Below, piece after piece: positions 13,105 to 62,420 of a stretch of DNA of 64,000 bases (the stretch's first letter is position 1; every line of letters starts with the position of its first letter). Position numbers and translations under genes: made by a program. Location: IMG/VR virus record IMGVR_UViG_3300042567_000108, positions 15,357 to 79,356 of that record; one strand, 5' to 3'. Source of the DNA: a virus. The notes under the pieces were generated by a model. The model did not search any database, was not told where the DNA came from, and worked only from the letters and a program-made list of their open reading frames with translations.

Positions 13105-13517
13105 TGCCAAGAGGCGGATACCGTCAGCCTAACAACCCAGCACCTGTATCAGGTCCTGGTGCACTTTCACAGCGCACAGATGGTGGAGCAACAGAAGGTA
13201 TGACACAACCACAACAACGATACACAGGATTTAACTACGGTGAAGGCGGAGAAATTGCTGCGCAACAAAGCAGCGCACCGCTTGCTGGTGCAGGATTTCC
13301 TGACTTTAAGTTTACGCCACTAGACGCTCCAACAGAGCGTCCTAATCAACCAGTAACTGCTGGTATTGATATTGGAGACGGTGGCGGTTCAGAGTTAATG
13401 GCAGGTATGCCTAACTATGCACCAACACTAACTGATACATTAAAGCGTCTTGCACAGTACGACCCATCAGGCGATGCAGAATTAATCTATAGACAACTAC
13501 TTGATAACGGGTACTAA
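13104..13517 (+). CDS. Small Pro/Gly-rich virion (internal) protein
   Basis: PTERPNQPVTAGID motif matches PTMNPDEPITAGIN in 53198..53647. Confidence 0.65.
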   Translation: MPRGGYRQPNNPAPVSGPGALSQRTDGGATEGMTQPQQRYTGFNYGEGGEIAAQQSSAPLAGAGFPDFKFTPLDAPTERPNQPVTAGIDIGDGGGSELMAGMPNYAPTLTDTLKRLAQYDPSGDAELIYRQLLDNGY

Positions 13518-16500
13518 TGCCTCAGTATATCAAACCTGTTGTTGCTGAAGTTTCACCTAACCTTTATGCTGCTGCTAAATCTGCGGGTTTATCTGGCGTA
13601 GAAAAAAACCAAGTAGAACAAATGAGTTACACGATTAAGAAGCATCGTGAACTTGCTAAACTTGGCACTGAGGGTGCACGCAAAGAGTTTGACCGTTTAG
13701 ACCCAGGTATTCAAGACCAATTAAGATTTATGTACAAAGATGCGGAGTACATGCAGGAAGCACCTGATGCTGCTGACCGCGTTATGGGTGTAGTTAAAGG
13801 TGCTGCTAAGATTGCGGCTTCACCGCTTATTGGTTTATTTAAACTAGGTGGACAATATAACCGTTTAATTAATGCTCCTTATAAGGTTGCTCGTCAAGTT
13901 TCACAGGGTGCAGATTTATTTGCTGCTAAAACTTGGACTGATGCATGGGATGGTAAGAACCAGTATGACCAAGGTGCACTAACAGAAGCAACAAACTACT
14001 TTGGTAAGTTTGATGTTGAGGTAGCAAAAGGATTACTTGCTGGTAAGACTCCTGGTGAAATTGTTCAAGATTACGGCAGAGTAGACCCTAACCTACTTAA
14101 CTCAATTAAAAAAGCCTACGATGACCCTGATGCTTTTAAGCAGGTTCTAGATGGTGTTAAGTATGCACAGGTTTCACCTGGTCGAGATATTGCTCGTATG
14201 CTTGACCGCAAGCCACCTTCAAGTGGTGTTAGCGGAAGCACTAAAAATATTTCTGGTGTTATTGATTTTATTTATCAGATTGCAGTAGACCCGCTTACTT
14301 GGATGACAGGTGGATTAAGCAAGGGTGTTACTAAGGGTGAGCGTATTGCTAACTCACTTACTGAAGCAATTAACAACGGCGTTCCAATTGAAAAGGCTGT
14401 TGAAACTACATTTAAAAATCCATTAGTATTTGAACTATGGGAAAAAGGTATTGGTCCTGCAATTAAAAGAGTTGCAGAGGCTAAGAATCCAGGTGACAAA
14501 TCACTAGCAATTGATAACATTGCTAAAAACTTTCCAGGATACAATGACCCTAATGCTATTAAAACACTTAGCGAAGCCAAAGTATTTGATGCTGGCACAG
14601 CACAAAAGTTTTTCGAAGATGCTGGCAATTTAAATTTATTGCTTGCTGGTCGTGTTGATGGTGTAACCTACATGCGTAATGGCGTAGCAGTTGCTCGCAC
14701 AAATCGTTTGATGTCTGATGCAATTACACGCTCACTTGATAATTTATTTAACAACATGAGCCGTACAGGTAAGGAACGCGATGAAGCGTTAACACCTATT
14801 ACAGCAGCATTACTTAATACTGAAGATGCTTTACAGCGTTTAATTAATCCTAATGCTGACATGTCTGTTGTGTTAAAGGCTAATGAAGAAATTAAAGGTT
14901 GGAAAAGAATTGGGCAGATGGCTGCTCGTTCTCCACAAGGGCTAGAAGTACGCATTGGTGTTAATGCTGTTGATACTGCTGCTAATTTTACAGCACGTGC
15001 ACGTCAGATTCTTCCTAAAGAAATGGCTCAAGCATTAACTGTACGATTCCTTGAGTCAACTGCTGATGAGCAAATTGTTATTTTGCGTAACTTAGATGCT
15101 GCAACCATGTACTCAATGGGTCTTGGTGGTAGCGTTAAGGGTGAAGATTTAATTATTAAAACACTTCAAGACAAGTATGGTGACAAAGCAGGCTTTGCAA
15201 CTAAAAGAGACCTAGCAATTAACCCAGACCATGCTAAGTTTGCACCAGCAAACTCTGTACGTGAGTCCGAAACTGGATTTTTTGTTAACACAGAAGGTCC
15301 AATTCAGCCATACCAGTCAACTTGGGCTGTTGGTCCACTACCTTATGACATAATTGGTTCAACTGTATGGGAAATTAAGTCAAAGAAAAATATTGTTAAT
15401 GCACTTGGTGGTGCAACACAGGGTAATTTCTCAAAAAAATTAGTTGATGCTTGGTCTATCTTAACTTTGTTCCCACGTTTAGGTGTGCGTTCTGCAATTG
15501 ATGAAGCAACAATGTATTTGTTGTCTGCACCTAATAAAGATTTGCGTCATTTTGCATCTCTTGAAGGTTTGCGTTTAGGAAATATGTCTCGTGCCTCTAC
15601 AGGTTCTAAGTCTGCTACAGGTCCAATTCGTGAAGGCATTCAAAAGGCTTTAAGTTTTATACCTAAGTCTGATAGACCAATGCGTATTGGCAAACAGCCA
15701 CGTTATTCACACGAAGAAGCATTAACATTGCTAGACCGTCAGAATATTCTTGAGGCTAAGGCTCTTGAGTTGGGTGTTGACCCAGTAATGTTGTCTAGTT
15801 TAGAAAAGCGTCAGGCTATTTCTGAACATGTGTCTCAAATGTATGGTCGTTACGTTGACCCTGAATCTGCTGGTTATTTAATGCAGGCATTTATTCACTC
15901 ACCTGATGCCCTAAACTCTATGGCTTCTTCATTAGTTGCTGCTAGCGGTATTTCTGGTCGCTATGGCGATGAAGTTGCTGCATCAGTTATTACGCCATCT
16001 ATGCTTGACATGGCTTTTGAGCAACTTGGTATTAAAATGGGCAAGGGCACACGTACCATTGACACTGGTATGCTGTCAGAACAAGAAGCAGCGCTAGCGC
16101 ATTTTGAAAAATGGTTTAAGATGCTTGCTGGTAACAAGGCTAAGTTAACAGATGAACGTACGCTTAACCCAGCAGATATATTTTTTAGATACAATGCACT
16201 TAAGCCAGGTGAGATTGACCCTCGCACTGGTAAAGAAATGATGGAACTAGCATTAGATGCTGGTATGACTAAGGTTGGTTTTGAGTTTAGCGACTTAACT
16301 AAGACTTGGGTTATTAAAGATGAGAAGGCTGTTAGAGCGTTTCTTGAACGCTCCATGTACACAGTACAAGCCCGTGCTAAAGGTTTAGATGATGAACAAA
16401 TTGTACGTGGTCAGTTGTTCCGCATGTTTAGTGATATGTATGAGACTTTTCATGGCGATGCAAACAAGTTTAATGAGACACTGCTTGGTGTAGTTAAAGA

Positions 16501-18625
16501 CAGTTATCGTCAACTACAAAAGATGGCTACTGATAGTGGTCGTGTTCCTTCATGGAATGAAGCAGTTGCTCGTATTCCGCTAGATGAGTTCCAAGATGCT
16601 AGCAAGGGTTTCCGCATTAGCGGACCCATTAATACTGAATTAGCATTTGGTGACTTTGATATTGAGTCTGTATTCAGACGTTACGGTAATACTATGATGG
16701 ATATGATGGATAAGCAGGTAACTGGTATCTTTCGTCAGCCAGCAATCATGGTTACATATGCTCAACTTCGTAAAAAGTATGCAGGCATTGAGCGTGAGTT
16801 TGTACGCCAACAAGTAAAGAATGAAATGGGTCCTTTTGCTGGGGCTACACAAAAGCAGATTGACGCTGTTACTGAAAAGTATAGAGCAATTGCAGAAAAA
16901 CGATTTACTGAATTAGCAGTGCGTGAGGCAGCAGATACTATCCTTAAGTTTGCTGATAACCCTAAGATTCGTTCTAACTTTTCATTTAGTCTACGTACTG
17001 TAGGTCGTTACTACCGTGCAACTGAAGACTTCTATCGCCGTCTTTACCGCTTGAAGGATGTTGCACCACGTACGCTATATCGTTTGCGTTTATCTAACGT
17101 AGGTCTTGAGGCTAGCGGTGCTGTTTTTGAAGACCAGAATGGCGAGCCATATGTAGTAATGCCTATGGACAACGTAATCTTTAAGGCAACTGATGGTGCG
17201 TTCCGCGCACTAACAGGTAACTTAGGATACAGCCAGCCATTGTTTAACGAGTTTACATTTAAACTCCGTATGGTTAACCCATCATTCTCACAAGATGCAG
17301 GTCTTCCTACACTATCTGGTCCTATTGCAGGACTAGGTGTTATTGCTGTAAAGAACTTATTGGGTACAGTACCAGGCAAGATTCCATTTGTTGGTGGTCA
17401 GATACAGCCATATGCACAGCAGTTAGGTGAGAGCATTGATACATTTGCGCTAGGTAGCATCGGCGATAACGTAGATGTTTTCCGTGCTGTAGTACCTGCT
17501 TCATTGCAGCGTGTATGGGCAGGACTTGGTATTGATGAAAAGTCTCGTCAACAGACGACTGCTGCTATGCAAGCGGTTGCTTATAATGCAGCAAATGGCA
17601 TAGGTATTGACCCTAATGCTAGCGATTTAGAGAAGGCTAAGTACCTAGATAACATTCGCATCTCAGCACACAACGTGTTGTTTATGCGTCACTTCTTAGG
17701 ACTATTCTCACCAGTTGCTCCTACAACTATGGAAACCGTAGGCGTTCCTGACTATATTAAGGAAACAGGTATTACTAGCCTGCGTTCAGAGTTCTTTGAT
17801 ATTCTTAATGGAATTACTGCTGCTAATCAGGGTGACATTGCAGACCCATATGAGGCTGCATTGGCTACATACATTGGCAAAAACCCAGGCAAACTTATCT
17901 ACACAGTGTCTCGTGAAGACAAGCAGACCAGAGTTCTTATTAAGAACACAGATAAGTTAAAGGACTGGGGCATTAGAAATGCCAAATTAGTAGAGCAGTA
18001 TGGCGAAGCAGCCTACATTTTTGCACCGCAAATTGGTGACTTTAATGCTGCTACATATAATTGGATTCAATCAGCAGGACTTGTTAAAAGCAAAAGCCTT
18101 GAAAAGTATTACAAGGATTTGCAGACAGCAGAAGACAAGCAGAAGTATTATGACATTGCACGTCAGGAAAAAGAAATCCTAGCGGAAATGTCAGACCCAC
18201 AACTGCGTGCTAATGTTATTAAAGCGGCAACGCAGCAGCGTGCTGCACTTAAGGCTAACAATCCATTGCTTAACTCAGCGCTTATTGGTGAGGGTAATAC
18301 CATTGGTAATGAGCAAGTGCTAATGAATAGCGTAGAGCAAATGATTAGCAACCCTGATGTAAAGATTAATGCAGCAACACGTCAGCGTATGGCACTAGCC
18401 ATCAAAATGATTCGTGAGTTTATTGCGTTCTCTACTGACCCAGAACTAAAGAATGTTAACAATGCACCACAGTTAAAGGCTGCACGCAAGGCACAGATTG
18501 AGGCTGACTTGAATGAATTAATGCTAGGCGACCTGTATGTAACAGAAGCAAACCGAGCAATCTTTAGGTCAATTCTTAATTTCTATTCACGTGATTCATA
18601 CTATGCTTATAAGGAGTTAAAGTAA
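13517..18625 (+). CDS. Large internal virion/ejection protein
   Basis: 1702 aa in the virion operon; short motifs shared with 53647..58260. Confidence 0.6.
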   Translation: MPQYIKPVVAEVSPNLYAAAKSAGLSGVEKNQVEQMSYTIKKHRELAKLGTEGARKEFDRLDPGIQDQLRFMYKDAEYMQEAPDAADRVMGVVKGAAKIAASPLIGLFKLGGQYNRLINAPYKVARQVSQGADLFAAKTWTDAWDGKNQYDQGALTEATNYFGKFDVEVAKGLLAGKTPGEIVQDYGRVDPNLLNSIKKAYDDPDAFKQVLDGVKYAQVSPGRDIARMLDRKPPSSGVSGSTKNISGVIDFIYQIAVDPLTWMTGGLSKGVTKGERIANSLTEAINNGVPIEKAVETTFKNPLVFELWEKGIGPAIKRVAEAKNPGDKSLAIDNIAKNFPGYNDPNAIKTLSEAKVFDAGTAQKFFEDAGNLNLLLAGRVDGVTYMRNGVAVARTNRLMSDAITRSLDNLFNNMSRTGKERDEALTPITAALLNTEDALQRLINPNADMSVVLKANEEIKGWKRIGQMAARSPQGLEVRIGVNAVDTAANFTARARQILPKEMAQALTVRFLESTADEQIVILRNLDAATMYSMGLGGSVKGEDLIIKTLQDKYGDKAGFATKRDLAINPDHAKFAPANSVRESETGFFVNTEGPIQPYQSTWAVGPLPYDIIGSTVWEIKSKKNIVNALGGATQGNFSKKLVDAWSILTLFPRLGVRSAIDEATMYLLSAPNKDLRHFASLEGLRLGNMSRASTGSKSATGPIREGIQKALSFIPKSDRPMRIGKQPRYSHEEALTLLDRQNILEAKALELGVDPVMLSSLEKRQAISEHVSQMYGRYVDPESAGYLMQAFIHSPDALNSMASSLVAASGISGRYGDEVAASVITPSMLDMAFEQLGIKMGKGTRTIDTGMLSEQEAALAHFEKWFKMLAGNKAKLTDERTLNPADIFFRYNALKPGEIDPRTGKEMMELALDAGMTKVGFEFSDLTKTWVIKDEKAVRAFLERSMYTVQARAKGLDDEQIVRGQLFRMFSDMYETFHGDANKFNETLLGVVKDSYRQLQKMATDSGRVPSWNEAVARIPLDEFQDASKGFRISGPINTELAFGDFDIESVFRRYGNTMMDMMDKQVTGIFRQPAIMVTYAQLRKKYAGIEREFVRQQVKNEMGPFAGATQKQIDAVTEKYRAIAEKRFTELAVREAADTILKFADNPKIRSNFSFSLRTVGRYYRATEDFYRRLYRLKDVAPRTLYRLRLSNVGLEASGAVFEDQNGEPYVVMPMDNVIFKATDGAFRALTGNLGYSQPLFNEFTFKLRMVNPSFSQDAGLPTLSGPIAGLGVIAVKNLLGTVPGKIPFVGGQIQPYAQQLGESIDTFALGSIGDNVDVFRAVVPASLQRVWAGLGIDEKSRQQTTAAMQAVAYNAANGIGIDPNASDLEKAKYLDNIRISAHNVLFMRHFLGLFSPVAPTTMETVGVPDYIKETGITSLRSEFFDILNGITAANQGDIADPYEAALATYIGKNPGKLIYTVSREDKQTRVLIKNTDKLKDWGIRNAKLVEQYGEAAYIFAPQIGDFNAATYNWIQSAGLVKSKSLEKYYKDLQTAEDKQKYYDIARQEKEILAEMSDPQLRANVIKAATQQRAALKANNPLLNSALIGEGNTIGNEQVLMNSVEQMISNPDVKINAATRQRMALAIKMIREFIAFSTDPELKNVNNAPQLKAARKAQIEADLNELMLGDLYVTEANRAIFRSILNFYSRDSYYAYKELK

Positions 18626-20229: not shown

Positions 20230-21527
20230 TGGCGCGTAAAGATAAAGATACAGGTATCGTTAAACCTACTCCAGTAATTGTTGATGAAAGAACAAAGGCT
20301 GCGGGTATGCGTGCTGCTGCAGCAAGCGCAGCCACAATGGAAACAAAAATTGCTGCTATGTCTCCTGCTGCTCGTGCGGCTGCTGCCGCATCTAAGGCTA
20401 GTTGGACTGCAGACCTTGACCCATATACAACGGCTATTGTTCCTGGTACTGGATTAACTCAAGCACAAATTGACACACGTAAATCTGCTGCTGGTGTATC
20501 TGCAAGCATTAACGAATCTTATGGCAGTCTTGGTATTAAGTCTACTGTTGACCCGCTTACTGGAAAAATTACTACAAAATCTCCAACAGGTGAAGACCTT
20601 GGAAGTCCTAGTCCTATTGAAGAAAAAAAGATTATAGAAGAAAAAAAGATTGTAGAACCAGAAAAGAAAGAAATTAGCGATGCTACTCGTGATGCGTTTG
20701 CTGCTCTTAAAGACTTGTTTGCATCATATGGGCTTGAAAGTTTAGCAGGTGAAATTTCTGATTACATGGCACAAGGACTTACAGCAGGTGAGGCTTTGAT
20801 TAAGTTAAAGACTAACCCTAGTGGCGCTTATGCTAAGCGTTTTGCTGGTAACTTTGCTCGCGTAAAGAATGGTCTTAATGCTATTTCTGAGGCTGCATAT
20901 ATTGGTCTTGAAAACTCATACGCTTCAACACTTAAAGCATATGGTTTAGGTAACATGGTTAGCCTTAATCGTGACGACAATTACAAAAAGTTTGCTGACT
21001 ATATTGCAGGAGACATATCTGCCGATGAGTTTAAGGACCGCGTAGACACAGTTGTTACCCGTGTACAAAATGCAGATGCATCAATTAAGTCAACACTTAA
21101 GGCTTTTTATCCTGAGATTACTGATGCTGACCTAATTGGTTACTTCCTTAATCCAAAGGAAAACTTGCCTAAGTTGCAGGAAAAGGTAACGGCATCTGAA
21201 ATTGGTGCTGCTGCTACAGGTATGGGTCTTGCTACAAATGTAGGAACAGCAACTGACCTTGCTAAATACGGTGTAGACCAGAAAGAAGCCCGTGAGGGTT
21301 ACTCAACTATTGCTGGCATATTGCCAACTGCTACAAAACTTGGTGATATTTACAATCAGGCTGGCGTTAAATACGCACAGGCTGAGGGTGAAGCCGAAGT
21401 ATTTAAGGGTAATCAAGATGCAGCAACTAAGCGTAAGCGCTTAGCCTCTATGGAACGTGCCGCTTTTAGCGGCAGTTCTGGTACAGGACAGTCAAGCCTA
21501 ACAAGAAGTACACAAGGCTTACTCTAA
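20229..21527 (+). CDS. Internal virion protein
   Basis: C-terminal two-thirds homologous to 60435..61829 (RVQNAD, ASEIG, ILPTA.KL.DIY). Confidence 0.6.
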   Translation: MARKDKDTGIVKPTPVIVDERTKAAGMRAAAASAATMETKIAAMSPAARAAAAASKASWTADLDPYTTAIVPGTGLTQAQIDTRKSAAGVSASINESYGSLGIKSTVDPLTGKITTKSPTGEDLGSPSPIEEKKIIEEKKIVEPEKKEISDATRDAFAALKDLFASYGLESLAGEISDYMAQGLTAGEALIKLKTNPSGAYAKRFAGNFARVKNGLNAISEAAYIGLENSYASTLKAYGLGNMVSLNRDDNYKKFADYIAGDISADEFKDRVDTVVTRVQNADASIKSTLKAFYPEITDADLIGYFLNPKENLPKLQEKVTASEIGAAATGMGLATNVGTATDLAKYGVDQKEAREGYSTIAGILPTATKLGDIYNQAGVKYAQAEGEAEVFKGNQDAATKRKRLASMERAAFSGSSGTGQSSLTRSTQGLL

Positions 21528-21531
21528 AAAA

Positions 21532-21625
21532 TAGAATCCAGAGCGGACCCACCAGCCCCGCCTGCGTATAAGACTGGTAGCAGAAGCCAGACGGTATTCC
21601 CCAATGCCGAACCTGTGGTCTGCGA
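21532..21625 (+). ncRNA. Candidate structured cis-regulatory RNA in the scaffold leader, copy A
   Basis: Pseudoknot plus nested stem; compensatory changes versus 61827..61917. Confidence 0.65.
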
Positions 21626-21655
21626 TTCAACTAATGAGATGGGAGAACGGTTGCT

Positions 21656-22129
21656 ATGAGCAACAACTACTGGGACGAAGACGAAGACGACATCGATACA
21701 ACTCCAAACACTGATGAAGGTGCAATGAAACAATTGCGCAAGGCTAAGCGTGCGGATGAAAAGCGTATCAAGGAGTTAACCGAGCAACTTGAGACATTCA
21801 CAAAAGCGCAACGTGAAGCGGTTATCAAGAAAGTCCTAGAAACAAAAGGCGTAAGTCCTAAAGCGGCACGATTAGTAGCACGAGAGATTGAAGGCGACTT
21901 CACAGAAGAGACAGTTTCTAACTGGCTTGATGATAACGCTGATGTCTTTGGGCTACAAGTGCAGCAGGAACAGCCTGCAAACACCCTTGACCGTGCTGCA
22001 TTGCGTCAGCAGGACATGGTAACACAGCAGGCGATGACGCCTGATGCCGACCAAAATCTGGCATACCAAGTAGACAACGCTTCGGAAGAAGAACTACTTG
22101 CCATGATTTATTCAGGCAAAATTAATTAA
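21656..22129 (+). CDS. Capsid scaffolding protein
   Basis: Acidic N-terminus, coiled coil LRKAKRADEKRIKELTEQLE, directly upstream of the capsid gene. Confidence 0.75.
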   Translation: MSNNYWDEDEDDIDTTPNTDEGAMKQLRKAKRADEKRIKELTEQLETFTKAQREAVIKKVLETKGVSPKAARLVAREIEGDFTEETVSNWLDDNADVFGLQVQQEQPANTLDRAALRQQDMVTQQAMTPDADQNLAYQVDNASEEELLAMIYSGKIN

Positions 22130-22169
22130 CAACAACCGAATCTAATACCCTCATAAGGAGGTGCAATAA

Positions 22170-23366
22170 ATGGCTAATGCATATACAACCACAGGCTCCA
22201 ACTCGCTTGGAGGTACCGTTGGTGGTGCTGGTCTCGTACAAAAGGCGTATGACCGTCTTGTCGAGTTCGCACTCCGTGCACAACCACTAATCCGTTCAGT
22301 TGCCGATAAGACACCTGCACGTCAAAGCATCCCTGGTTCATCAGTTGTTTTGCAGCGTTATGTTGACTTGACAAAGAAGACAGCAACACTCACAGAAACA
22401 GTTGACCCAGATGCAGTAGCGTTGGCAACACCAACCTACACAACAATTACTCTTGCAGAGTATGGTAACGCAGTACTTGTAACACGTGCGTTGGAACTAT
22501 TCAGCCTTGCTGATGTAGACCCAGCAATCGCTAACATTATTGCGTTCAACATGGCAGACTCAATTGACGAAGTTGCTCAGACAGTGCTACGCGCTGGAAC
22601 AAACGTACTTCGTGGCGGAACTGCTACATCTCGCGGAACAATTACATCATCTGATGTATTTACTTCAGCACTTGCACGTAAGGCAACTGCAAAGTTGCGT
22701 TCTGAAAAGGCTATCCCTCGCAAGGGTTCACTATACTGGGCTGGTATCCACCCAGAAGTTTCACATGACCTTCGCGCCGAAACAGGCGTAGGTTCATGGC
22801 GTCAGCCACACGAGTATCAGTCAAATGATGCTATCTGGGCAGGCGAAATTGGTACATACGAAGGTGCTTTCTATGTAGAGTCACCACGTCTGTACTCAGA
22901 CAAGTTAGGTGCAGACCGCACAGCACTTGCAACTACAGCAGTAACTGTAGCAGCAGCATCAGCAGCAACATCATTTGGTATTGCTTCTTCTTCTGCTATC
23001 GCTACATCTGCACAGCCAGGAGATAAGATTTCAGGAACAGGCATTGCGTCTGGTTCTCTTATCGTATCTATTACAACAGATGGTTCAACATCAACAGTTA
23101 CTGTTGATACACCATTCTCTGCTGCAGTCACATCGACTACAACAATCACTGTTACACCTGAGACAAAGGTATTCAATACCTACTTCGCAGGACAGCAGGC
23201 ATTGGCTGAGGCAGTTGCCGAAGAGCCACACGTTGTAATCGGACCTGTCGTTGACAAGTTGATGCGTCACCGTCCACTCGGATGGTACGGCGTACTTGGT
23301 CACGCTATCTACCGTGAAGAGGCGCTTTACCGCGTTGAGACTTCTTCATCAATTGACTTTGTGTAA
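22170..23366 (+). CDS. Major capsid protein (N4-gp56-like) with Ser/Thr-rich insertion
   Basis: EYGNAV, IHPEVSHDLR, GEIGTYEG and DKLMR..GWYG motifs; AGGAGG RBS. Confidence 0.9.
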   Translation: MANAYTTTGSNSLGGTVGGAGLVQKAYDRLVEFALRAQPLIRSVADKTPARQSIPGSSVVLQRYVDLTKKTATLTETVDPDAVALATPTYTTITLAEYGNAVLVTRALELFSLADVDPAIANIIAFNMADSIDEVAQTVLRAGTNVLRGGTATSRGTITSSDVFTSALARKATAKLRSEKAIPRKGSLYWAGIHPEVSHDLRAETGVGSWRQPHEYQSNDAIWAGEIGTYEGAFYVESPRLYSDKLGADRTALATTAVTVAAASAATSFGIASSSAIATSAQPGDKISGTGIASGSLIVSITTDGSTSTVTVDTPFSAAVTSTTTITVTPETKVFNTYFAGQQALAEAVAEEPHVVIGPVVDKLMRHRPLGWYGVLGHAIYREEALYRVETSSSIDFV

Positions 23367-60435: not shown

Positions 60436-61829
60436 TGAGATACAATCCAGAATTAATGATGGTTGATGGTGAAGGTGGCGGTGTACCCAATAACCCTACG
60501 CTAACTCCAGCACAGATGCAAACAGCTGTTAGAAAACTAGGAGCAGGTCAGCCATTAACTGATGCTGAAAAAATTGCATTAGGTGTTCCAGTAAGCGTAA
60601 GCCCTGCTGCTGCACCAAGTGAAGTTCTAAGTGGACCAGTGGGCATGGACGACCCACGTTACTACACAATGAAGGTCGGCTCAACTGGTAAAACCTCTGC
60701 ACAATTGGCAGCATTTGAGAATGCTACTAATACTGCTACAGTAATTAACCAAAACGTGCCTGGATATAAGTCAACTGTAGACCCAATAACTGGTCAAGTA
60801 ACTACCAAAAAGACCACAACCGCTACCCCACCACCTCCTCCAGGAGTTGTACCAAATGCTCCGTCACCGCAAACTATTATTAATAACATAACTGACCCTG
60901 CTGTACTTGCTCTGATTCAATCATTAAATTCTCAAATTGCTAACTTATCTAATGCAAACAAAACAGCCGCAGACTTAGCGGCAGCTGAGAAGAAAGCTGC
61001 AGCAGAGACTACACGTAAGAATGCTATAGATGTTCTTACTGAGCGCTTTCAGCGTTATGGTCTAGGCAGTCTTGTTAATAAGATTAAAGAACTAGCAATT
61101 GATGGCGCAACTGAAGCAACGATTACATTAGGCTTGCAAGAGACTCAAGAGTACAAGACGCGCTTCAAGGCAAATGAAGCACGCATTAAGAAGGGCTTAG
61201 CAGTTCTTAATCCTGGAGAGTACCTTAATGTTGAAGATGGCTATCGCCAGGTTCTACGTGCGTATGGACTCAAGCAGTTTGATACTGATGATTATGTATC
61301 TCAGTTCATCGCTAATGACGTATCTGCTGCAGAACTTTCTAACCGTGTGGTTACAGCAGTACAGCGTGTACAGAATGCTGACCCTGCTATCTCACAGCAA
61401 CTACGTGATTTCTATGGCATTGGCCAAGCAGACCTAGTTGCTTATGTACTAGACCCTAACCAGCAGTTCCAGAAGATTGAACGTCAGGTTGCAGCATCTG
61501 AAATTGGTGTAGCAGCGGCACGTCAAGGGCTAAAGACTGGTGTATCAGTTGCTGAACAACTAGCAGCACAAGGTGTTACACAGGCAGAAGCACAAAAGGG
61601 TTACGCAACTATTGCAGATATCCTTCCAACTGCTGAGAAACTATCTGATATCTATGGCACAACTCTTGATAGTTATGGCCAGACAGAAGCTGAGCAAGAG
61701 GTATTTAATAGTCTAGCATCAGCACAACGTAAGCGTCAAAAACTTACACAACGTGAAATTGCATCCTTTAGTGGTGCAGCAGGCACGAACAAAACAAGTC
61801 TTACTACATCTGCAGTAGGACAATTCTAG
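60435..61829 (+). CDS. Internal virion protein
   Basis: Homolog of 20229..21527; start at TAATG. Confidence 0.6.
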   Translation: MRYNPELMMVDGEGGGVPNNPTLTPAQMQTAVRKLGAGQPLTDAEKIALGVPVSVSPAAAPSEVLSGPVGMDDPRYYTMKVGSTGKTSAQLAAFENATNTATVINQNVPGYKSTVDPITGQVTTKKTTTATPPPPPGVVPNAPSPQTIINNITDPAVLALIQSLNSQIANLSNANKTAADLAAAEKKAAAETTRKNAIDVLTERFQRYGLGSLVNKIKELAIDGATEATITLGLQETQEYKTRFKANEARIKKGLAVLNPGEYLNVEDGYRQVLRAYGLKQFDTDDYVSQFIANDVSAAELSNRVVTAVQRVQNADPAISQQLRDFYGIGQADLVAYVLDPNQQFQKIERQVAASEIGVAAARQGLKTGVSVAEQLAAQGVTQAEAQKGYATIADILPTAEKLSDIYGTTLDSYGQTEAEQEVFNSLASAQRKRQKLTQREIASFSGAAGTNKTSLTTSAVGQF

Positions 61830-61917
61830 AATCCTGAACGGACCTATCGGCCCCGTCAGAGTAATAGACCGATAGTAGGAGCCAGCCAATTTCCCCGAAT
61901 TGAACTGTGGCCTGCGA
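61827..61917 (+). ncRNA. Candidate structured cis-regulatory RNA in the scaffold leader, copy B
   Basis: Covarying homolog of 21532..21625. Confidence 0.65.
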
Positions 61918-61946
61918 ACTAACAACGAATAGAAGGGTGGGTTGCT

Positions 61947-62420
61947 ATGAGCAACAACTACTGGGACGACGAAGACGAAGACCAAGATACCGACACAGAT
62001 ACACATATGGACGGCAGTGACTTACTTAAAAAGTTACGTAAAGCCAAGCGTGCAGATGAAAAGCGTATTAAGGAACTCACTGAGCAACTTGAGGGATTTT
62101 CCAAGGCGCAGCGTGAGTCTACCGTTAAGTCAGTACTAGAAAAGAAGGGTGTAAACCAAAAGGCAGCACGTCTAATCCTTAAGGATTTAGATGGAGATTT
62201 CTCTGAAGAATCAGTTTCTAACTGGCTCAACGATAACGGCGAACTATTTGGTTTAGAAGTATCAAACAGACCTGACGAACAAAACCTAGCGACGCTACGT
62301 CAGCAGGACGTCATGACTCAAAATGCTTCCACCCCAGACAGAGCACAGGACTTAGAGCAACGCATGGATAATGCAAACTCTATGGAGGAACTCCTCACCC
62401 TGATGCAGTCACAACAATAA
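61947..62420 (+). CDS. Capsid scaffolding protein
   Basis: MSNNYWD..LRKAKRADEKRIKELTEQLE. Confidence 0.75.
   Translation: MSNNYWDDEDEDQDTDTDTHMDGSDLLKKLRKAKRADEKRIKELTEQLEGFSKAQRESTVKSVLEKKGVNQKAARLILKDLDGDFSEESVSNWLNDNGELFGLEVSNRPDEQNLATLRQQDVMTQNASTPDRAQDLEQRMDNANSMEELLTLMQSQQ

Follow-up and report, generated by a model that had tools for sequence, protein, structure and literature searches.

Gene 32 of phage T4 is controlled by an operator that consists of an H-type pseudoknot at the 5' end of the mRNA leader, next to which an unstructured A/U- or A/C-rich stretch carries the ribosome-binding site, and that acts in cis on one highly expressed gene. The leader RNA described here, which precedes the head-scaffold gene in considerably more than a thousand sequences of actinobacterial phages, cultured Streptomyces phages included, has the same architecture, with its pseudoknot supported by covariation, and would likewise act in cis. 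It differs from the T4 element in the gene downstream, which is scaffold-like and does not encode a single-stranded DNA-binding protein (SSB), and in possessing another large arm with a tip complementary to the Shine-Dalgarno (SD) sequence; there is no sequence similarity between the two, and, unlike for the T4 operator, we know of no repressor for the leader. Rfam does not hold a model for the T4 gene 32 element (PMC10690425). In the preQ1-III riboswitch (RF02680), as in the leader, a pseudoknotted 5' domain precedes a hairpin that engages (in the leader: is proposed to engage) a distal SD, within ~100 nt. The leader gave no cmscan match to this family at E values up to 10 and lacks a link to queuosine genes. 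Helices a few nucleotides from the 5' end of the mRNA, upstream of a highly expressed gene, are a feature of the E. coli ompA leader and of the 5' stabilisers of B. subtilis; here the 5' end is a likely one, and the leader is far more elaborate and more sequence-constrained than such stem-loops. Their stabilising effect on bacterial mRNAs was reportedly described by Emory et al. in 1992, a study cited in the review named further below. Finally, post-transcriptional control of a phage scaffold gene, which we propose for the leader, is also the principle of scaffolding protein autoregulation in P22, but the two phage lineages are unrelated. To our knowledge, P22 is the only well-studied precedent for regulation of this gene class, the setting of the scaffold-to-capsid ratio is known genetically for P22 only, and for the scaffolding protein of P22 no target RNA of defined structure has been reported.

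The window, i.e. the whole stretch of 64,000 nucleotides that was analysed (positions 1-64000), is part of an IMG/VR record of 79,356 bases in which two related phage genomes of ~40 kb are arranged head to tail; this two-genome record may be a chimeric assembly of two co-occurring strains. The two leader copies, A and B, are 40,295 bases apart in the record. In both genomes the leader is on the + strand, between a gene of unknown function and a gene for a 157-aa scaffold-like protein, which is followed by the gene for the major head protein. The gene 5' of the copy A leader encodes a protein of 432 aa (phrog_8424, function unknown) that is not the portal; portal and terminase genes are located further upstream. 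The scaffold-like gene (21656..22129, + strand, 157 aa) matches phrog_7813 and, weakly, phrog_3760 (head scaffolding protein). Its product is 28% identical to gp35 of Streptomyces phage Zeigle, and several phage records list orthologues of gp35 as "scaffolding protein". Next on the same strand comes the gene for the major head protein (22170..23366, + strand; Pfam Phage_capsid_3, phrog_1357). A scaffold-like gene was found downstream of the leader in every member, and the protein encoded there starts with MSN..W in all groups. The capsid proteins vary in length, with 398 aa in the window clade, 309 aa in a second freshwater clade (L169:4256-5185) and ~320 aa in the Streptomyces phages, which implies a putative insertion of ~80-90 aa in the window clade. 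Upstream in the late operon, an ORF of 1,702 aa (13517-18625 of the window) is without a Pfam or PHROG match.

The leader RNA (~95 bases, + strand) folds into two domains, the first made up of helix P1 and a pseudoknot, the second an arm of helices P3, P3a and P4 with a CCCC tip. In copy A, the core spans 21533..21625 (93 nt; 94.6 bits and E 1e-22 with covariance model R1, introduced below). Its P1 hairpin (21539..21564) is formed by 21539-21546, with A21542 bulged, and 21558-21564. The P1 loop holds the 5' strand of the pseudoknot (21551..21578), in which ACCAGC (21551-21556) pairs with G21572 and CUGGU (21574-21578); both strands are joined by the A-rich linker GUAUAAGA. The 3' arm (21580..21623), coaxial over ~17 bp, comprises P3 (21580-21584/21619-21623), P3a (21587-21590/21613-21617) and P4 (21592-21598/21603-21609). 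P3 and P3a are separated by an internal loop, to which the 5' strand contributes a conserved A-G-C and the 3' strand G-G, and the apical loop CCCC (21599..21602), which is invariant, is the proposed partner of the GGG of the SD. Downstream of the core, we read from the sequence (21626..21645) a C/A-rich, unstructured linker (21626-21640) and the SD GGGAG (21641-21645), followed by a hairpin around the start codon (21650..21664; GUUGCU-AUG-AGCAAC, gene start at 21656). Copy B (core 61828..61917, + strand, 90 nt; 84.3 bits, E 6e-20) follows the same plan, with P1 formed by 61834-61841 and 61853-61859, the pseudoknot by 61846-61851 with 61867 and 61869-61873, P3 by 61875-61879 and 61911-61915, P3a by 61882-61885 and 61905-61909, and P4 by 61887-61892 and 61897-61902, all on the + strand; the CCCC loop is at 61893-61896. 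Its linker, SD and start-codon hairpin occupy 61918..61955 on the same strand (SD GGGUGG at 61935-61940, hairpin at 61941-61955 with the ATG at 61947). The sequence differences between the two copies are compensatory.

All pairings that an earlier note on this DNA had drawn for the two leaders are present where it had placed them, and its five pseudoknot pairs were extended by a sixth across a bulged A, which changes from C-G to U-A in four sequences. The segments described there as invariant need some revision. CCCC is indeed invariant, but the flanking U's of the supposed TCCCC loop belong to closing pairs that covary; TAGAATCC and GGACC are conserved in only part of the family, and GGTTGCTATG turned out to be the 5' half of the start-codon hairpin. 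Common to all groups are a P1 of ~8 bp with one bulge, the central 5-6 nt of its loop being engaged in the pseudoknot, and a 3' pseudoknot segment 9-13 nt downstream of P1, across the A-rich linker GUAUAAGA or GUAGUGAAGA. These are followed by a P3 of 5 bp, the AGC/GG internal loop, P3a, P4 and a C-rich apical loop, then by a C/A-rich linker of 10-17 nt without conserved pairing, the SD and the start codon. A closing helix P0 (5' AGAAUC / 3' GAUUC) was discarded, as it fits copy A but not many relatives and is without a mutual-information signal.

Homologues were collected from IMG/VR by a capsid-based search, which yielded at least 592 relatives, the best 80 of which were kept, and by a context-free DNA pattern derived from the 3' arm, which added at least 120 further stretches. 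Nearly all capsid- and pattern-found loci carry the motif, adding up to 151 distinct core sequences, and at the pattern-found loci (at least 120) a scaffold-like ORF starts 22-33 nt downstream wherever the sequence is long enough. A covariance model, R1, was built; in each phage genome of the window it picks out a single copy, with the scores given above. Pairs were counted in 99 IMG/VR homologues, each less than 93% identical to any other. In this set, 96.1% of cells are paired, compared to 24-39% when the 3' partners are slid to other registers; compensatory changes occur in 23 of 30 pairs, and the observed score was reached by none of 500 shuffles. Compensation is seen in 7 of 8 pairs of P1, in all seven of P4 and in five pairs of P3 and P3a, which together are 99.9% paired. 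The pseudoknot pairs also alternate (CG:75/UA:24, AU:64/GC:35, CG:96/UA:3 and, for the sixth pair, CG:92/UA:4). In a mutual-information scan of the whole leader, the top column pairs were those of the stems, with no other long-range signal. The + strand is the RNA, because G-U pairs (173 GU/UG) far outnumber A-C combinations (24 AC/CA), and the stretch is non-coding, because the leaders do not have lengths divisible by three and all frames are interrupted by stops in most members. The view that a real, strand-specific, non-coding and pseudoknotted RNA resides in the scaffold/capsid leader, as had been proposed from the two copies, is thus borne out by the covariation in 99 homologues and by the G-U excess; pair counts on the collected leaders of homologues, whose collection had been suggested at the time, revealed covariation that extends to the pseudoknot. 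Stop-codon read-through or -1 frameshifting driven by the pseudoknot was considered and rejected: relative to the RNA, the reading frame is not the same in copy A as in copy B, P1 contains indels of 1-2 nt, and most members have stops in all frames.

Lake metatranscriptomes contain contigs of close relatives that start within the leader, cover the scaffold gene and extend into the capsid gene (e.g. 21550-22492), so that leader and gene share contigs in RNA libraries, keeping in mind that RNA libraries may contain DNA. In four lake RNA runs we found no contig on 20200-21400, except for a single depth-2 piece at 21411-21558. Neither this gap in coverage nor the ends of contigs from two studies at 21547 and 21550 were taken to indicate an mRNA 5' end, since these contigs derive from relatives at 90-95% identity and assembly graphs break at the variable P1 arms.

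The element is not confined to the clade of the window. In the second freshwater clade (clade II; 309-aa capsid, at least 552 relatives) the motif is present at 78 of 80 loci, with the same plan and a CCCC loop, and its pseudoknot covaries independently (ACCGG/CCGGU, ACUGG/CCAGU). Altogether, 223 distinct freshwater sequences show CCCC without exception. The Beephvirinae, a subfamily of cultured Streptomyces phages whose capsid protein is ~44% identical to that of the freshwater phages, have a divergent homologue in the ~115-nt gap between tRNA-Val and the scaffold gene in 29 of 29 records, among them Zeigle, WRightOn, FlowerPower, Abafar and Manuel. For these leaders, R1 and a further model, R2, align the 3' arm only (17-24 bits), and the 5' domain was set by hand and by pair counts. 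Their eight distinct leaders are 99.6% paired, with compensatory changes in 14 of 32 pairs overall and in three of the five pseudoknot pairs; three pseudoknot sequences occur (GCUGG/CCAGC, GCCAG/CUGGC and GUCAG/CUGAC). Soil relatives (252 capsid relatives in IMG/VR) contributed 38 further distinct leaders, in which the pseudoknot covaries as well. In another 15, more divergent soil leaders, read by eye, a tRNA-like stretch (GGTTCGA..TCC) is located just upstream of the element. In Bacillus phage Page, with a capsid protein of 27% identity, the gap between portal and scaffold genes is A/T-rich and gave no R1 match. One contig in a metagenome-assembled genome bin of Actinomycetota carries the capsid gene and the motif together; going by this binned contig and the Streptomyces relatives, the freshwater phages probably infect Actinomycetota. 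The lineage is most likely one of actinobacterial podovirus-like phages, and the element a cis-acting 5' leader of their scaffold (and capsid) message.

We found no gathering-score match over the whole window to any of the 4,227 models of Rfam 15, which include riboswitches, ribozymes, leaders and xrRNAs. With E values up to 10, the region 21400-21750 gave only a 13-bit chance match to a snoRNA; the Streptomyces phage leaders gave only the neighbouring tRNA, and one clade II leader gave nothing. This agrees with the impression of the earlier note, which had not recognised a named family and had advised a cmscan comparison with Rfam. A description of the leader element did not turn up in our literature search. 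A survey of IMG/VR v3 from 2023 (Fremin et al., PMC10690425) lists 8,495 unnamed candidate structured RNAs ("DNAVirus_N"), most of them without function or description. It used the same data source and aimed at the same kind of object, namely covarying intergenic RNAs of uncultured phages, and the leader motif, with its hundreds of copies, may be among these entries. We regard the leader as a new RNA family of a known general kind, that of pseudoknotted, putatively SD-masking phage leaders.

A second pseudoknot has been proposed between the tip of the 3' arm and the SD. In every freshwater member, the loop CCCC is accompanied by an SD GGGAG or GGGUGG; most other genes of the window have SDs of the AAGGAG type, GGGAG being found in about 5 of 54. 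The Streptomyces phages and their closest soil relatives have a loop (C)CCUAG and an SD (C/U)UAGGAG, corresponding to a 5-bp match. One lineage (L324) combines the loop CCCUAA with the SD UUAGGAG and represents a full compensatory variant (CCUAA/UUAGG), four lineages have a G-U intermediate, and in more distant soil lineages CCCC is again found with GGGAG. Within the 38 soil/Streptomyces sequences, the loop-SD helix is 91% paired, compared to 25-57% in slid registers, and has 14 doubly changed cells versus 3.4 +/- 1.4 in shuffles, with UA:28/CG:8 and GC:23/GU:6/AU:1 as pair types; the switch from U-A to C-G may have been a single evolutionary event. In the freshwater clades both partners are invariant, hence no covariation signal is possible there. 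The largest freshwater subgroup (loop CCCC-GAA, SD GAAGGGUGG, copy B included) can form three G-C pairs at most. Moreover, a loop of only four bases on top of a stem is poorly suited for pairing as long as the two weak top pairs of the stem stay closed. By hand tally, a flanking loop-SD pair occurs in 11 of 18 soil GGGAG lineages, compared to about 8 expected by chance, which we do not take as an excess. The base after the C-run and that before the G-run combine as U with A in 18 of 18 clade I sequences, which stem from only ~5 lineages, and a G-A mismatch dominates the largest subgroup; this association is suggestive at best. Another one, between the nucleotide before the C-run (position 81) and the SD base after GGG, was inconsistent on inspection and was abandoned. 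Judging from these comparisons of sequences, we put the chance that the second pseudoknot is real at a little over one half. The idea of the C-rich loop pairing with the G-rich ribosome-binding site had been raised for the window phages; it gains independent support from the combinations CCCUAG/CUAGGAG and CCCC/GGGAG in the soil and Streptomyces sequences, but is weakly supported in the largest freshwater subgroup, to which copy B belongs.

In the freshwater clades, the start codon of the scaffold gene lies in the loop of a hairpin of 5-6 bp (GUUGCU-AUG-AGCAAC in copy A), whose arms covary (AUUGC/GCAAU, UGCC/GGCA, GGAC/GUCC, GGUUG/CAACC) and for which -4.6 to -6.3 kcal/mol are predicted in 44 of 44 freshwater variants. 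Such a hairpin is not evident in the Streptomyces phages. In leaders of the copy B type, the SD GGGUGG can also pair with codons 5-6 (~-9 kcal/mol). The GGGAG SD of the scaffold gene has an unusually long spacing of 10 nt to the ATG (21641-21655), and the capsid gene has the near-perfect SD AAGGAGGUG at 7 nt (22150-22169).

At its 5' edge, P1 starts 1-12 nt after a stop codon in the freshwater phages and 0-3 nt after the 3' end of tRNA-Val in the Streptomyces phages; at the loci of Zeigle (L286:89-2102) and other Beephvirinae, it is an array of ~21 tRNA genes that ends at this distance from P1. Since a gap of 0-3 nt after the tRNA leaves no room for a promoter, the element is co-transcribed with the upstream genes in the Streptomyces phages, and tRNA maturation would leave it at the very 5' end of the scaffold-capsid message. 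ARAGORN detected no tRNA-like gene within 21300-21800 of the window. A -10-like hexamer, TAGAAT (21532-21537), overlaps the stop-codon region ahead of copy A and is kept, as TANNNT, in much of clade I only.

What could the function of such a leader be? It probably controls the output of scaffold protein, as far as can be told from sequence conservation and gene order. We consider it most likely, with an even chance of being right, that the leader acts in cis by masking the ribosome-binding site of the scaffold gene and by capping the 5' end of the mRNA. According to this proposal, the tip (CCCC, or CCCUAG in the Streptomyces phages) would pair with the SD 35-45 nt downstream, and the resulting second pseudoknot would mask the ribosome-binding site; in the freshwater clades, the small hairpin would also hold the start codon. 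The masked SD and the start-codon hairpin would limit or gate initiation at the scaffold gene, in contrast to the capsid gene on the same strand with its strong and open SD. The base-paired 5' end, for its part, would shield the processed message from 5'-end-dependent RNases. Candidates for opening or locking the masked state are ribosome competition, scaffold or capsid protein, or another factor. It is counter-intuitive to find a doubly masked start site here, as scaffold protein is needed in large amounts.

The leader might instead serve as a boundary and stability device of the mRNA only, a reading that we regard as possible but rather unlikely. The late transcript would be cut, either by tRNA maturation or by an RNase in the A/U-rich stop-codon region, and the compact pseudoknot at the new 5' end would block RNase J and RNase E, such that the scaffold-capsid segment outlives the upstream genes; the SD complementarity would be incidental or only add compaction. 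Mechanical stability is typical of H-type pseudoknots whose third loop is A-rich. The position of P1 directly after the tRNA in Streptomyces and soil phages, without room for a promoter, implies a processed 5'-monophosphate end, its short distance from the stop codon in the freshwater clades points in the same direction, and 5'-terminal helices are known to stabilise bacterial mRNAs by blocking 5'-end-dependent RNases (reviewed in PMC3997798). However, a mere boundary function does not explain why the CCCC tip is invariant, nor does it explain the AGC/GG internal loop, the short and constant spacing to the SD or the co-variation of tip and SD, and the Rfam search gave no match, which includes any exonuclease-resistant RNA families in Rfam.

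Of the same low probability is a protein-binding translational operator: a phage protein, be it free scaffold protein, capsid protein or another one, would attach to the conserved loops and keep the RNA in its repressed fold, with scaffold synthesis being autoregulated by the assembly state as in phage P22. For P22, autoregulation by the scaffolding protein was reportedly established by Wyckoff and Casjens in 1985. An operator would account for the strict link to one gene family over a deep divergence (~44% identity of the capsid and ~28% of the scaffold proteins between freshwater and Streptomyces phages), for the conserved unpaired nucleotides (CCCC, AGC/GG and the A-rich linker), which are typical protein contacts, and for the weak and structured start site of the scaffold gene next to a strong and open capsid SD. 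On the other hand, the unpaired RNA bases stay fixed even where the scaffold protein, at 28% identity, has become hardly recognisable, which mildly favours a conserved host partner or a self-contained fold. The more specific version, in which free scaffold (or capsid) protein would bind the AGC/GG loop and the C-rich tip and thereby lock the SD-masking pseudoknot as an assembly-sensing autogenous operator, appears a little less probable again, and autoregulation by the scaffold protein is drawn from analogy with P22 only. If true, a build-up of unassembled protein would throttle scaffold synthesis, and the leader would be a structurally defined operator kept from lake phages to cultured Streptomyces phages.

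The two further options of the earlier note, a riboswitch-like or a ribozyme-like RNA, found no backing, as nothing points to a ligand or to self-cleavage and no Rfam family matched. A small-molecule riboswitch, with the pseudoknot domain as aptamer and the SD-masking arm as expression platform, is very improbable: the succession of a pseudoknot and a hairpin pairing with a distal SD does resemble preQ1-III, and the junction nucleotides are highly conserved, but there is no match to a riboswitch model of Rfam even at E values up to 10, the regulated gene is structural and not metabolic, and one alternative pairing that we inspected, between the pseudoknot 3' strand and the P3a 5' strand, is not kept where the pseudoknot sequence has changed. 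The corresponding two-state switch, with CUGGU re-pairing with GCCAG of P3a, was dropped, as inspection showed it to be lost in members with AUCGG/CCGAU pseudoknots. Just as improbable is a new ribozyme class whose self-cleavage would sever the late transcript and so generate the 5' end of the mRNA for scaffold and capsid. Phage genomes often contain small ribozymes, and the element, with its pseudoknot and conserved junctions, sits at a likely processing boundary; against this, it matches none of the Rfam families and hence none of the self-cleaving classes represented there, its topology presumably differs from those of pistol and HDV, and tRNA processing already provides the 5' end in the Streptomyces phages. 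Finally, that the leader is not an RNA structure but a signal in the DNA or a short coding region can be practically dismissed, since G-U pairs set the strand, stops occur in all frames, and the one promoter candidate, a sigma-70-like TACACA-17-TAGAAT ending at 21537, is of a kind expected by chance (5 found, 4.5 expected), would start transcription ~7 nt downstream and thus remove strongly covarying outer P1 pairs, is absent from clade II and from divergent clade I members, and has its position occupied by a tRNA in the Streptomyces phages.

The leader thus adds a new, well-supported RNA family with two pseudoknots, the second of them proposed, in a stretch of ~95 nt and the adjoining ribosome-binding region. 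Its members go with one gene class only, that of the head scaffold, in a lineage of actinobacterial phages that is both deep and abundant. Its presence in cultured, easily handled Streptomyces phages makes the mechanism directly testable, and the leader offers itself as a small natural module with which to adjust translation or mRNA stability in Actinomycetota.
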